64,000 nt of DNA from Nostoc sp. DedSLP01 (GTDB taxonomy: Bacteria > Cyanobacteriota > Cyanobacteriia > Cyanobacteriales > Nostocaceae): NCBI GenBank assembly GCA_034530875.2, contig JAVRCJ020000017.1:96001-160000 (forward strand). Direction: 5' to 3'. The notes below the pieces were generated by a model. That model was not told the origin of the DNA, searched no databases, and saw only the letters and a list, made by a program, of their open reading frames with translations. Position numbers and translations under genes: made by a program. The stretch's first letter is position 1; each line of letters opens with the position of its first letter. Positions 46,955 through 63,290 of the stretch are shown here, piece after piece.

Positions 46955-48064
46955 CTAGCCAAGAGTTATATTCGGTAACTCTGGGCGGTTAACCAGATGA
47001 GCGTAAGTTTGCATAACCATTCGGGTGTCTTTATGTCCGAGTAAATATGCCACCCCGGTGATCGGCGTACCTTGGTCTATGGCATGACTAGCAGTCGTGT
47101 GCCGAGTAGTATACGGTCTTCGGTAATCTACACCGACTCTAGTTAATACCTTAATCCAGTATCTTTCTCTGAAGTTACCGTCATCTATTGGTTTTCCTTT
47201 GACTGTAGTAAATACTAAGGAATCCTGGTCAGGTTTAGGAGGTTTGATTGACCACAAGAGTAGGCGTAACTCATCAGTCATTGCTAGATGTCTGCTGCTA
47301 CCCGTTTTAGTCTCCTTTCTGACCCTCTGATAACCATTACCAGCCCAGTCTCTAGAGAGACTTTCATGGATAGTTACAAGCCCTTGGTCAAAGTCCACAT
47401 GACGCCAACATAACCCAATAGCTTCAGATGTCCTAACACCTGTAGCCAGTAAAAACTTAACAAAAGGCGCGTAGTGCATGGCTGACTCTTCAAAGCCCTG
47501 AATGATTGCTTTAATCTCTCTGGAGGTAAAGGGTTTGATCGGTTTAGCGTACACCCTGCGGGTTTTTAGCCCGTCATAGGGGTTACTAGTAACCAAGTTT
47601 TTGGATACAGCCCAGCGATAGCATCTTTTCAAATAACCCAGGCGTTGATTAAAAGTTGAGGCTCCTAAGTTGGATTGGGTCAGCCATGTGGTATCTATCA
47701 AGTCTGGGTTAGCTTTAACAATCTGCTGCCTAATGGCTTTGTAGTGATGCTGTCTGGTAGCTCTTGAAAGGTTGAGGCTGTCTACCCAGTTATCCCACAG
47801 TTCTAGCAGCATTTGAGGTTTTGACACCTGGCTACTGGATTGTATAGATTGCTTTGGGGCTAACCGATAACGGTTTAGCGTCGGGTCAAAGTTCTTAGCT
47901 AGGATGTCATTTTGTATTTGGCTGGCGATCGCTTGTGCTGTTTTTAAGTCCCTGTTGTTGGTAAACTGCCCCCCAGGTATAGGGTTAAAGCTGTACCGTT
48001 TACCACCCACAGAAAACTTTAGTTGAATAGACCCGTTATTATTAACTGGCTTGATTTCCCTCAC
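46955..48064 (-). CDS. Tyrosine recombinase/integrase with N-terminal arm-binding domain
   Basis: NNNGSIQLKFSVGGKRY arm domain; TGVRTSE, TKTG, YTTRHT, LLGH, QTYAH catalytic motifs. Confidence 0.95.
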   Translation of the reverse strand: MREIKPVNNNGSIQLKFSVGGKRYSFNPIPGGQFTNNRDLKTAQAIASQIQNDILAKNFDPTLNRYRLAPKQSIQSSSQVSKPQMLLELWDNWVDSLNLSRATRQHHYKAIRQQIVKANPDLIDTTWLTQSNLGASTFNQRLGYLKRCYRWAVSKNLVTSNPYDGLKTRRVYAKPIKPFTSREIKAIIQGFEESAMHYAPFVKFLLATGVRTSEAIGLCWRHVDFDQGLVTIHESLSRDWAGNGYQRVRKETKTGSSRHLAMTDELRLLLWSIKPPKPDQDSLVFTTVKGKPIDDGNFRERYWIKVLTRVGVDYRRPYTTRHTTASHAIDQGTPITGVAYLLGHKDTRMVMQTYAHLVNRPELPNITLG

Positions 48065-54005: not shown

Positions 54006-54447
54006 GCTTTTTATGGTGCTTGGCAATTGTATGAAGTACAGACAATCAGATATTACTACATTGATATTATCAAGCAATTAATACTAATTTGAAAAAAGAA
54101 TCAGATAGATTGGGTAGGGGTGCAAGGCTTTGTGTCCCTACAGCTTTTTGATGTGTTGCAAAGATTTTTTAAATTTGCACAAATAAAAAAATTTGAGATT
54201 TTGCATAAAAGAAAAATATATTACTGATTAATAGCTATAGCAGAAAACAAGCAACGGCTTAAAACCCTTCTGATAAAAGGGTTTGACGGACAGTTTGTAT
54301 TATCAAGTAGCTGATAAATGCTATATCAGCTAAAAACTATCAGTTTTATAGTTGATAGACAAAATCTAGTAGTTTAATACTTCTTTTGAAAATGAACTAT
54401 TAGTAACTCATTATTCTCTTAAACATTAAGAATTCGGAGTATTGATA

Positions 54448-56025
54448 ATGGCAATCAATTGGATTCCCGGTCTAGGACCCACTAATGGAGCAGATAAAGG
54501 TATTGGTGATGACGCTGCTAATAGCCTCAATGGTCTTGCTGGAAATGACACTCTCGAAGGCGGTGCTGGAAATGACACCCTTTATGGGGGAAATGGTAAT
54601 GATTTGATACGAGGTGGTGATGGTATCGACTATTTATATGGCGAAAATGGCAACGATACCCTAGTAGGCGATCGCGGTAACGACATCTTCAGTGGTGGAA
54701 ACGGCGACGACCGATTGATTTGGAACAACGGTGACGGTAGCGACAGAATCAGCGGTAATTCTGGCTATGACGTTGTTGAAGTCAACGGTGCGGCAGCGGC
54801 TGGCGACAGCTTCCGCCTGCAAAAGGATGCCTCCGGAAAAGCAATTTTTGACCGTCTCAACCTCGTTCCATTTACCCTGACCGTAGACAGTGCCGAGAGA
54901 TTTGAAATCAATGGTGGCGGTGGTGATGACACCATCGATGTCAACGACCTCACAGGCACAGGAGTCAGCGCAGTCTGGTTGACTGGCGGTGCTGGTAATG
55001 ACTTGCTTGATGGTAGTGGCACAGCTACACCCTTAACAAGCTCTGGTGGTGAGGGAAATGACACCGTAATTGGTGGCACTGGAAGCGACAGCCTTTATGG
55101 TGATGCTGGTAATGACCTGCTACAAGGTGGCGATGGTATCGATTATTTATCTGGTGGCAACGGTAACGATACCGTAGTTGGCAATCGCGGTAACGACATC
55201 TTCAGCGGTGGAAACGGCGACGACCGATTGATTTGGAACAACGGTGACGGTAGCGATAGAATCAGCGGCAATTCTGGCTATGACGTCGTTGAAGTTAATG
55301 GCGCGGGGGCGGCTGGTGACAGTTTCCGCCTGCAAAAGGATGCCTCTGGTAAAGCAATCTTTGACCGCCTCAACCTTGTTCCGTTCACTCTGACTGTAGA
55401 CAGTGCTGAGAAATTTGAAATTAATGGTGGCGGTGGTGATGACATCATTGATGTCAATGACCTCACAGGAACCGGAGTCAGTGCAGTACGACTGACTGGC
55501 GGTGCTGGCAACGACTTGCTTGATGGTAGTGGCACATGGACACCATTAACTGCTTTTGGTGATGAGGGGAATGACACTCTCTACGGTGGAAGAGGTGATG
55601 ATAGCCTCTATGGTGGAGCTGGAAATGACCTGTTAACAGGTGGTAAAGGTAATGACATCTTGACAGGCGGTGGTGGTAGCGATCGCTTTTTGTTCAACTC
55701 AGGCGCTGCCTACAAGAGTGCTGATTTGGGTGTAGATTATATCACCGACTTTACCCGCGGTCAGGACAAAATTGTGTTGGATAAGACAACTTTCGTCGGA
55801 CTCAACAATTGGTCTGGGATTGCGATCGTAGCTAATGATGCAGCAGCAGCCACTAGCAATGGACTAGTTATTTACAGTCTAGGAACTGGTAACTTGTTCT
55901 ACAACCAAAACTTAGCATCGACAGGCTTTGGTTCGGGTGGTCTGTTTGCCAACATTGATAACGATAACAAGTCATGGACAGCAGCACCAGCATTGACAAC
56001 TAGCGACTTTGAGATAGTTGCGTAA
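54448..56025 (+). CDS. RTX/hemolysin-type calcium-binding protein with 513-bp internal duplication
   Basis: Many GGxGxDxL nonapeptides; C-terminal DYITDF..GQDKIVL; units 54568-55080 and 55081-55593. Confidence 0.9.
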   Translation: MAINWIPGLGPTNGADKGIGDDAANSLNGLAGNDTLEGGAGNDTLYGGNGNDLIRGGDGIDYLYGENGNDTLVGDRGNDIFSGGNGDDRLIWNNGDGSDRISGNSGYDVVEVNGAAAAGDSFRLQKDASGKAIFDRLNLVPFTLTVDSAERFEINGGGGDDTIDVNDLTGTGVSAVWLTGGAGNDLLDGSGTATPLTSSGGEGNDTVIGGTGSDSLYGDAGNDLLQGGDGIDYLSGGNGNDTVVGNRGNDIFSGGNGDDRLIWNNGDGSDRISGNSGYDVVEVNGAGAAGDSFRLQKDASGKAIFDRLNLVPFTLTVDSAEKFEINGGGGDDIIDVNDLTGTGVSAVRLTGGAGNDLLDGSGTWTPLTAFGDEGNDTLYGGRGDDSLYGGAGNDLLTGGKGNDILTGGGGSDRFLFNSGAAYKSADLGVDYITDFTRGQDKIVLDKTTFVGLNNWSGIAIVANDAAAATSNGLVIYSLGTGNLFYNQNLASTGFGSGGLFANIDNDNKSWTAAPALTTSDFEIVA

Positions 56026-56056: not shown

Positions 56057-56095
56057 TTAAATCCTCCTCCTAGTTGAAATACGAGGAGGATTTAA
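56057..56095. terminator. Hairpin/terminator after the RTX gene
   Basis: TTAAATCCTCCTC ... GAGGAGGATTTAA. Confidence 0.65.
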
Positions 56096-56292
56096 TCTAT
56101 TTACTTGAATTAAGAATTATTGTCTTATAAGAATTGAAGATTCAAATCATAGTACACAACAGGCTTGATGTCAGGATTTTAGATAGGTTGATGTCCTAAA
56201 CTATAGACTTTCACTTCTAAAAAAATCTACATCAGGTACAAAGCTTACTGTATTATTTTTGTATTCAAAAAAGATTGTGAAGAGGAGTTTGT

Positions 56293-56796
56293 ATGAAATT
56301 GAAGTCAGCTTGCGTATGTATTGGTTTAGGTCTTCTGAGTTTTTCAGTAAGTTCATTGCCACGTTTAGGAAATCCCGCACAAGTTCTTGCTCAAGAAGTT
56401 AGCGCTTCATGCCCTCTACCAGCTGATATTGCCATTACCTTCTTCAATTCAGAATGTAAAGAAGTCAAACTAGAGCAACCCCAAACTTTTTATCGTTACT
56501 ATAGTAACAGTAGCAACAAATATGGTAGATATTTAACAACTAACCAATATAAAACTAACGTAGAAGTAATCAAGAATCTAGCTCTCAATCAACAATGGGG
56601 CAACCAAGCCACTTTAAAGCTAACAGTAACTTTGCCAGCAGGAACAGTAACTTATCAAGGCATTGTAGCCCCTCAAACTCCTAAAGAATGCTATCCAGGT
56701 GGTGGTCAACAGACATTCATTAAAGATTCAAAAGATCCAAATATCAAGTGGTCTGAGGGAGAAAATATTGTTGTAGAAAATTTTAGCTGTCCGTAA
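56293..56796 (+). CDS. Signal-peptide protein with Tse6/TNT-like NAD(P)+ glycohydrolase toxin domain (putative)
   Basis: Sec-type signal (..AQVLA|QE); FYRYY...GRYLT...LALNQQWGNQA...LPAGT..YQGIVAPQ...PGGGQQ motif series. Confidence 0.65.
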   Translation: MKLKSACVCIGLGLLSFSVSSLPRLGNPAQVLAQEVSASCPLPADIAITFFNSECKEVKLEQPQTFYRYYSNSSNKYGRYLTTNQYKTNVEVIKNLALNQQWGNQATLKLTVTLPAGTVTYQGIVAPQTPKECYPGGGQQTFIKDSKDPNIKWSEGENIVVENFSCP

Positions 56797-56801
56797 AATT
56801 T

Positions 56802-57086
56802 ATGGAAACGAAAACACAAGAATTTATCAAACTGATTGACCGAGCTTCTGAAATCACTGAACAGATGCTCAAAGACAAACAAGCTGAGTTTTCTCCACGT
56901 TTAAATAACGTGATAGCTGCTTTACAATCTATTAAGAATAAAGCGCTCAATGGTCAACTCGAACCATCAGGAGGAAACTCGACTCTTGGTCTGGCTAGTC
57001 AAGTGGCGGATTGGATTGAACCGTTAGATTCGCCATTATTAAAAGCCGTAGGTGGGATAGAGGAGTATTACCAAAAACACCTCTAA
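56802..57086 (+). CDS. Tsi6-like helical immunity protein (putative)
   Basis: 94 aa, no signal, 5 bp after the toxin-like gene; IDRA...LQSIK...TLG...D.PLLKA pattern. Confidence 0.55.
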   Translation: METKTQEFIKLIDRASEITEQMLKDKQAEFSPRLNNVIAALQSIKNKALNGQLEPSGGNSTLGLASQVADWIEPLDSPLLKAVGGIEEYYQKHL

Positions 57087-62895: not shown

Positions 62896-62968
62896 GATGA
62901 TTCTGGATTATTACCTTCAATAATTGACTATTACTCTCAATAATTCAGTATATAGGGGACTGGGGAGA

Positions 62969-63075
62969 TGGAGAGGTGTGGGGGGTGTGGGAGGTGTGGG
63001 GGGTGTGGGAGGTGTGGGAGGTGTGGGAGGTGTGGGGGGTGTGGGAAGTGTGGGGGGTGTGGGAGGTGTGGGAAG
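62969..63075. repeat. 9-bp tandem repeat (GGAGGTGTG/GGGGGTGTG) with a partial complementary arm downstream
   Basis: About 11 adjacent units. Confidence 0.85.
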
Positions 63076-63290
63076 AAATCCTTTCCCCCCTCTCTCCCCA
63101 CACTCCTCACACTCCCCCATCTCCCCAATCACTAGTCACCACTCCCTAGTTCCCAATCCCCCACTCCTTCCTTTAGATTTGGAATTTGAGTATACTACGA
63201 TAAATCTATCGATATTATGGTTTTAATCGGGTTTACAGAAACTCTTGCATAACCTTAATGGAGAACGACACAGGCAAAGGAGTGAGTGAG

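Follow-up and report, generated by a model that had tools for sequence, protein, structure and literature searches.

A predicted Sec-exported NAD(P)+ glycohydrolase of the Tne2 type and its putative cytoplasmic inhibitor in Nostoc and other cyanobacteria

Introduction

NAD(P)+ glycohydrolases of the Tne type are described in the papers cited here as the tips of injected or contact-delivered proteins. In the Tne2-Tni2 system of Pseudomonas protegens (PDB 6B12), a toxin gene is followed by a small partner gene, and Tne2 is described in PMC10539506 as a T6SS effector on a PAAR carrier. Tse6 (Tne1) and Tsi6 of Pseudomonas aeruginosa (PDB 4ZV0, 4ZUY) form a second pair of this kind. The TNT-type palm fold also occurs in fungal surface NADases, such as AfNADase, and in mycobacterial TNT-IFT. 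According to PMC7955114, AfNADase functions extracellularly and possesses disulfides as well as a signal peptide, so the fungal enzymes provide a precedent for this fold as a signal-bearing, disulfide-bonded surface enzyme. Secreted hydrolases with an inhibitor that guards the producer are exemplified by Anabaena NucA-NuiA and Bacillus barnase-barstar, and NucA is described as aiding competition too (PMC13522737).

Here we analyze a gene pair, ORF1-ORF2, in a 64,000-nucleotide stretch of Nostoc DNA (the whole stretch analyzed, hereafter the window). The pair resembles Tne2-Tni2 in gene order and in having Tne2 as the best fold match of ORF1, and Tse6-Tsi6 in the enzyme fold and a Tsi6-like partner. 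Unlike Tne2, however, ORF1 carries only a predicted signal peptide and four cysteines, and ORF2 resembles Tsi6, with Tni2 absent from its listed matches. Unlike Tse6-Tsi6, the pair has no Pfam Ntox46 or Tsi6 match and no PAAR or transmembrane carrier. In the predicted structures, a Tne2-like enzyme is thus combined with a Tsi6-like partner. With NucA-NuiA and barnase-barstar the pair shares the arrangement, recognized here from sequence, of a predicted signal-bearing hydrolase with a putative signal-less cytoplasmic inhibitor, but those systems are nucleases of unrelated folds. Fungal NADases differ from ORF1 in having a thumb domain and no immunity gene. Our literature search returned no description of the pair family, and the word cyanobacteria does not occur in the available portion of PMC13285283; tables of Tne2 homologues may already list cyanobacterial members.

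Results

A two-gene unit next to an unrelated RTX gene

The locus comprises two same-strand genes separated by 5 bp, and their extents and ATG starts are those given in the earlier note (Table 1). The motif series from which that note had read a toxin domain is present in full and in order: Y67-R68, G78-R-Y80-L-T, A97-L98, W102-G-N104, P115-A-G-T, Y121-Q-G123, A126-P-Q128 and G136-G-G-Q-Q140.

Table 1. Features of the ORF1-ORF2 locus (window positions) and anchored relatives elsewhere (positions within each locus)
Feature	Position	Strand	Remarks
RTX-repeat gene, upstream of ORF1	54442-56025		sequence
Strong hairpin past the RTX stop; boundary feature	56057..56095	+	-24.9 kcal/mol, z -5.5
GAGGAG ribosome-binding-like site	56282..56287	+	5 nt ahead of ORF1 ATG; sequence
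ORF1, signal peptide followed by a predicted NAD(P)+ glycohydrolase domain of Tne2 fold	56293..56796	+	167 aa, ATG start
ORF1 signal peptide (predicted Sec), residues 1-33	56293..56391	+	likely cut after V-L-A33; sequence and rule-based test
ORF1 mature domain	56392..56793	+	134 aa; sequence conservation
ORF1 Tyr80 codon, aligned with Tne2 Phe330	56530..56532	+	profile alignment; numbering offset inferred
ORF1 Gln140 codon, aligned with Tne2 Gln387	56710..56712	+	profile alignment
ORF2, predicted cytoplasmic inhibitor of ORF1; four-helix bundle	56802..57086	+	94 aa, ATG start; without signal or Cys
PEP-CTERM-type anchored relatives beside nadR-pnuC or pnuC, without ORF2	L108 1902-2567; L109 4715-5482; L110 4861-5592; L174 4869-5594		

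The pair is flanked by an RTX-repeat gene and a convergent gene encoding an Fe-S/CCG-domain protein. The position just downstream of the RTX gene, remarked on in the earlier note, is correct, but the association is incidental. Three or more RTX nonapeptides were found in only 1 of 80 related loci, and a hairpin, matched in stability by none of 200 shuffled sequences, lies between the RTX gene and the pair, although a terminator scan made no call there. This hairpin likely sets the RTX gene apart from the pair, and we reject the RTX gene as a partner or carrier; it lies outside the ORF1-ORF2 unit. Any third gene family is shared by at most 15 of the 80 paired loci. A promoter scan gave no plus-strand site upstream of the pair, and a Pho-like pattern was found in none of the loci. 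An NtcA-like pattern lies upstream in 15 of the 80 loci and is absent from the window; a common regulator box was rejected. The RTX protein itself contains an internal near-duplicate of about 170 aa, and the loci of the closest relatives have a gene of about 400 aa on the opposite strand in place of the RTX gene.

ORF1 is predicted to adopt the Tne2 fold

A model of ORF1 built from a 116-sequence alignment reached a pLDDT of at least 90 for 126 of 167 residues. Foldseek placed Tne2 first (E 4.6e-6, TM 0.76 by target), followed by Serratia Rhs1-CT, Tse6 and fungal NADases; all listed matches with a probability of at least 0.97 are NADases, with a sharp drop to unrelated proteins thereafter. In a VIA-align comparison with 48,161 chains, Tne2 again ranked first (Z 13.5, rmsd 2.1, 109 aligned residues, 16% identity), ahead of Rhs1-CT (11.5), Tse6 (8.9), fungal NADases (6.9 and 6.7) and TNT (5.9). 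The top six entries are all NADases, and ADP-ribosyltransferases appear at Z of 5.1 or below.

A broad family profile, built on 66 sequences by adding to ORF1 65 of the 149 other listed representatives, matched Tne2 alone among 177,635 PDB sequences (E 0.0024, over 65 residues). Searches of the PDB sequences with ORF1, ORF2 and their close profiles gave nothing significant; ORF1 by itself and its close profile both missed Tne2. Neither protein has a family in Pfam or NCBIfam; Pfam Ntox46 (PF15538) matched neither ORF1 at E of 1 or below nor anything in the genome at E of 10 or below, and the TNT model PF14021 did not match ORF1. An Atlas feature match of ORF1 to a TNT cluster, at 0.86, serves as a lead only. 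The NADase-toxin fold proposed in the earlier note is thus supported by Foldseek and VIA-align, but the nearest solved relative is Tne2 and not Tse6/Ntox46 or TNT, whose Pfam models found nothing. The CD38-fold ARC toxin and Tne5 were also considered as relatives, and the fold lists give them no support.

The broad-profile alignment puts Y80 and Q140 of ORF1 on Tne2 F330 and Q387, with a Tne2 numbering offset of 273 that we infer because it fits both residues. Identity to Tne2 is only 16-17%. In PMC6398120, Phe330 and Gln387 are the shared aromatic and glutamine, and PMC10539506 calls the glutamine strictly conserved. Across the 149 representatives, an aromatic residue (Y, F or W) occupies position 80 in 146 of the 147 that align there, and all 143 aligned at position 140 have Q. 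Within the 80 closer loci, F50, R68, G78, N104 and Q140 are invariant and Y80 is always Y or F. Fold and active-site residues together predict that ORF1 is a Tne2-type NAD(P)+ glycohydrolase. The window's ORF1 has Phe51 at a position occupied by Leu in 70 of the 80 related loci.

A predicted export signal and two putative disulfides

The Sec-type signal and four mature cysteines reported from the first inspection are both present and conserved. A rule combining charge and hydrophobicity was passed by 112 of 116 ORF1 relatives and by none of 70 ORF2 relatives. The likely cut site is retained, with Ala33 in 105 and Gln34 in 101 of the 116, and residues 1-35 have low model confidence, as for a disordered N-terminus. 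Tat and lipoprotein export were rejected on motif counts (twin-Arg motif in 1/116, lipobox in 0/116). ORF1 is therefore likely exported through Sec.

Besides two cysteines within the signal, ORF1 contains C40, C55, C133 and C166, found in 111, 116, 114 and 115 of the 116 relatives, respectively. Across the 149 distant representatives, all four are absent in 115, six have only the first two, and two have only the last two. The retention of 40/55 and 133/166 as separate couples suggests disulfides between C40 and C55 and between C133 and C166.

ORF2 resembles Tsi6 in its predicted fold

ORF2 is modeled as four helices (pLDDT 82). The top three Foldseek entries are Tsi6 structures (E 0.029-0.055, TM 0.65, 21-23% identity), followed by SfeP; in VIA-align, SfeP leads (Z 12.5, 20% identity) and Tsi6 comes fourth (Z 10.0), although Z values of 10-12.5 can be generic for helical bundles and 10.0 is not specific. 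Tsi6 and YeeD (PF27174) clusters are among those nearest to ORF2 in the Atlas, with YeeD the nearest feature cluster, and Tni2 is not among the listed fold matches, in which Tsi6 and SfeP rank first. The resemblance to Tsi6 claimed in the earlier note hence holds for the fold but not at the level of Pfam. The Tsi6 family (PF18660) matched none of 60 further ORF2 relatives and nothing in the genome, and it is absent from the families listed for the 70 ORF2 relatives (25 of 39 families). The UniRef entry of one ORF2 relative carries the name "Tsi6 domain-containing".

Tsi6 places a basic residue, K62, in the active site of the toxin. The ORF2 family has two near-invariant basic positions, 45 (Lys45) and 66, and position 66 is a candidate active-site plug; it is Arg or His in 79 of 80 related loci and Ser in the window's own ORF2 (56997-56999). 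Taking fold, the missing signal and gene pairing together, ORF2 likely stays inside the cell and inhibits ORF1.

SfeP (YPK_0411; PDB 7DMS), published as a T6SS effector encoded at the end of a T6SS cluster, has the closest fold to ORF2 and lies near Tsi6. PMC13079257 presents it as an effector that binds Fe(II) and, in the available part, makes no mention of Tsi6. ORF2, in contrast to this reportedly secreted Fe(II) binder, lacks a signal and occurs linked to ORF1. From the fold comparison, SfeP may belong to the same immunity-protein group as ORF2 and Tsi6.

The pair is conserved, patchy and under purifying selection

Searches at E of 0.001 or below returned 134 relatives of ORF1 and 70 of ORF2, the closest named ones being Nostoc and Desmonostoc proteins with 84-87% identity that are annotated as hypothetical. 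Each gene is single-copy in the 8.57 Mb genome. Of 101 confirmed GTDB matches, 80 loci were kept, and in every one an ORF2 relative directly follows ORF1 on the same strand, at exactly 5 bp in 33 loci and within 30 bp in 69. Co-occurrence of the two genes, which the earlier note had singled out as informative, is thus complete in this sample. For 34 of the 80 fetched loci (L003-L036), median dN/dS was 0.22 for mature ORF1 and 0.17 for ORF2; the pair is under purifying selection.

Carriers include Nostoc, Anabaena and Calothrix as well as planktonic Microcystis, Planktothrix and Cyanobium, yet the family is patchy. It was found in 22 of 401 genomes sampled across the phylum (two being weak matches in long proteins) and in three of eight other genomes of the same genus. 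In an order-level sample, 32 of 401 genomes had a domain-level ORF1 match, with seven candidates scored per genome and a further 58 matching genomes set aside as weak, nearly all of them matching on the anchor tail. The flanks of the pair differ between lineages, and the family moves between sites. ORF2 matches occurred in 27 of the 401 order genomes, 24 beside ORF1 and three partial; two of these three remnants have internal stops, and none has an ORF1 remnant within about 1.5 kb. An intact orphan ORF2 was found in none of the 401. Phage, plasmid and viral collections gave no match, and a metagenome scan with a single protein yielded two loci.

Distant relatives are toxin tips

The mature ORF1 domain retrieved 602 representatives at E of 0.001 or below. 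In the 149 listed, it lies at most 30 residues from the C-terminus in 141 and behind at least 100 residues in 93. Among 109 distant representatives scanned with Pfam, 20 contained Rhs, VENN, DUF637, haemagglutinin, TPS, HINT or LXG domains, and most had no family. The kinship with C-terminal toxin domains of CdiA and Rhs proteins suspected from the motifs is accordingly found in distant Rhs, CdiA and LXG proteins that end in this domain. In a 60-row tree, signal-bearing cyanobacterial proteins form one 38-row group (support 98/94) apart from the CdiA, LXG and HINT rows. Two long-branch, carrier-type rows nevertheless fall inside this group and the tree is midpoint-rooted, so descent from toxin tips is the inferred direction.

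The absence of a secretion-system adaptor, also noted earlier, was confirmed: mature ORF1 is a bare domain without a carrier, and neither VipB (T6SS sheath) nor PAAR has a match in the 99.8% complete genome. Polymorphic toxins are recognized by carriers with exchangeable tips and by orphan immunity genes; here we found no carrier, a single copy and no intact orphan. In the one plasmid locus inspected for the partner of a carrier-bound relative, the gene behind a degraded Rhs tip is unrelated and encodes 82 aa.

Several further carrier-type versions exist. A cyanobacterial open frame of 5,790 aa (L179 4361-19000, G465:C37) ends in such a version of the ORF1 domain and is followed by a repetitive tract, with no ORF2-family gene behind it. 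Two members of the phylum with genomes of 1.8 Mb (L103 and L104; G188 and G290) encode proteins of about 1,680 aa that end in a distant version and are followed by a gene of about 115 aa and a very Cys-rich repeat protein, again with no ORF2-family gene. In P0198 (351 aa), an ORF1-type domain stands behind lectin-like repeats (DUF346/CV39L-type, below the NCBIfam cut-off).

An anchored sister clade without ORF2

In several ORF1 relatives the C-terminus combines a [VI]PEP[SN] motif with a hydrophobic segment and a tail of basic residues. The PEP-CTERM model was passed at its cut-off by one anchored relative and missed by two others, so the anchor label rests mostly on the motif. The anchored relatives form one sister clade (support 96/96), and an ORF2-family gene was found near none of its nine loci with DNA context, of which two end within 600 bp downstream and one has a broken gene. 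Genome-wide searches detected no ORF2 in six of seven anchored-clade genomes, and the seventh has it only at a separate paired locus.

Three of the nine anchored loci lie tail to tail with nadR-pnuC, one directly behind pnuC and five beside neither; the pnuC-linked loci cover all three sub-branches with known context. Beside the paired loci, nadR or pnuC was found in 0 of 80. The close pnuC clade is rare, occurring in six of 401 phylum genomes, five of which, including the window's own, carry the NADase family. Conversely, with the close pnuC as query, 15 of 20 family-bearing genomes of the phylum sample lack it, and in the order sample four of 11 genomes with close pnuC carry the family and seven have no clear member. 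A Fisher test of pnuC co-occurrence (p 0.048) carries no weight here, since its table mixes two overlapping samples and kin are not independent. Some of the anchored clade is genuinely linked to nadR-pnuC; taken as a whole, the linkage is loose.

In the window's genome, the nadR-like and pnuC genes of this rare cyanobacterial clade (L114, G000:C10:130411-132085) are unlinked to the pair and sit among several PEP-CTERM-type genes; no broken anchored paralogue was found beside them. The substrate of PnuC is nicotinamide riboside, but the products of a glycohydrolase are nicotinamide and ADP-ribose, so a salvage link would not be a direct feed.

Discussion

That ORF1 and ORF2 are an enzyme and its inhibitor appears very probable. 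We propose that ORF1 would leave the cytoplasm via Sec, acquire two disulfides on folding as a Tne2-type NAD(P)+ glycohydrolase and, by analogy with Tne2 and Tse6, cleave NAD(P)+ outside the cytoplasm to nicotinamide and ADP-ribose. ORF2 would remain inside and block any enzyme that folds there, possibly by plugging the active site. The purpose may be to break down NAD(P)+ that has escaped to the periplasm, the sheath or the colony, with the benefit lying in salvage, or in denying NAD(P)+ to neighbors, rather than in entering rival cells. We consider this reading, in which ORF1 is exported and serves as an NADase outside the cell while ORF2 guards the cytoplasm, about as likely as not.

Among the roles that the earlier note left open, the comparative evidence leans towards extracellular NAD handling over killing. 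A role outside the cell is suggested by the bare domain, the lack of VipB and PAAR, the single copy, a dN/dS of about 0.2 and the absence of an intact orphan ORF2, and in addition by the anchored sister clade beside nadR-pnuC, the same gene pair being present on another contig of the window's genome. A diffusible or vesicle-borne antibacterial toxin, Sec-exported and draining NAD(P)+ in neighbors or siblings, with ORF2 as true immunity, would be the main, though less probable, alternative. It draws on the ancestry among toxin tips, on the Tsi6-like partner and on a patchy, mobile two-gene cassette that behaves as conflict genes do. Moreover, anchored relatives cross the same cytoplasm without ORF2, so a guard needed before export does not by itself explain ORF2 in the free forms. 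Its presence at 80/80 free-form and 0/9 anchored loci, that is, exactly where the enzyme can diffuse, fits re-entry of a diffusible toxin. On the other hand, the 134-aa mature protein has no receptor-binding or translocation part, the genome has no T6SS sheath or PAAR gene, immunity genes without a toxin are limited to three decayed copies in 401 genomes, the single-copy pair has no diversifying signal, and phage and plasmid collections are without a match.

We consider it improbable that the fold has been kept for another reaction or target, such as another nicotinamide nucleotide for NadR-PnuC, a signaling product, or the removal of extracellular NAD sensed by a eukaryotic partner or grazer. 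Such a shift would suit the link between anchored relatives and nadR-pnuC, a module with a substrate other than a glycohydrolase product, as well as 16% identity to the nearest assayed enzyme and the action of fungal surface NADases at a host interface. However, the aromatic residue and glutamine common to Tne2, Tse6 and TNT are retained, the presence of a dedicated partner in the cytoplasm points to damage to a core metabolite, and the pair also occurs in planktonic Microcystis, Planktothrix and Cyanobium. Least probable is that the genes form a selfish cassette of the toxin-antitoxin type or a decaying orphan toxin tip without any outside role, or that ORF2 is an SfeP-like metal binder and not an inhibitor. 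Changing neighbors between lineages and the top VIA-align rank of SfeP, reported to bind Fe(II) (PMC13079257), speak for it, but signal peptide and cysteines are kept across genera, purifying selection acts on the pair, and intact ORF2 was never found without ORF1 in 401 genomes.

Building on the exported-NADase reading, we tentatively suggest, at less than even chances, that a polymorphic-toxin tip was domesticated into cyanobacterial ecto-enzymes that are either free and guarded by a borrowed Tsi6-type inhibitor or PEP-CTERM-anchored, having lost the inhibitor, and travelling with NadR-PnuC. Together these would constitute an undescribed route of extracellular NAD(P) turnover in colonies and blooms. 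The predicted Sec export of a carrier-free ORF1 sets it apart from the delivered Tne-type tips, and the pair represents either a new delivery of such a toxin or a weapon reused as an outside enzyme. The contrast between free forms with an inhibitor and anchored forms without one allows tests of why secreted toxic enzymes keep immunity genes. The analysis also suggests a likely role for two families of hypothetical proteins from cyanobacteria that form blooms or live in symbiosis.

Three further features lie apart from these arguments. At 46955-48064 on the minus strand, about 8 kb upstream of the pair, the window holds an ORF that we take, by its sequence alone, to be site-specific integrase-like. 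A short tandem repeat tract at about 62940-63080 would translate to (PTP)n from one strand and to (GVG)n from its complement. Finally, one ORF1 relative (L107 4723-5340, G050:C100) has a signal only, with neither ORF2 nor an anchor, and is followed by genes for 863-aa and 533-aa proteins that have no Pfam match.
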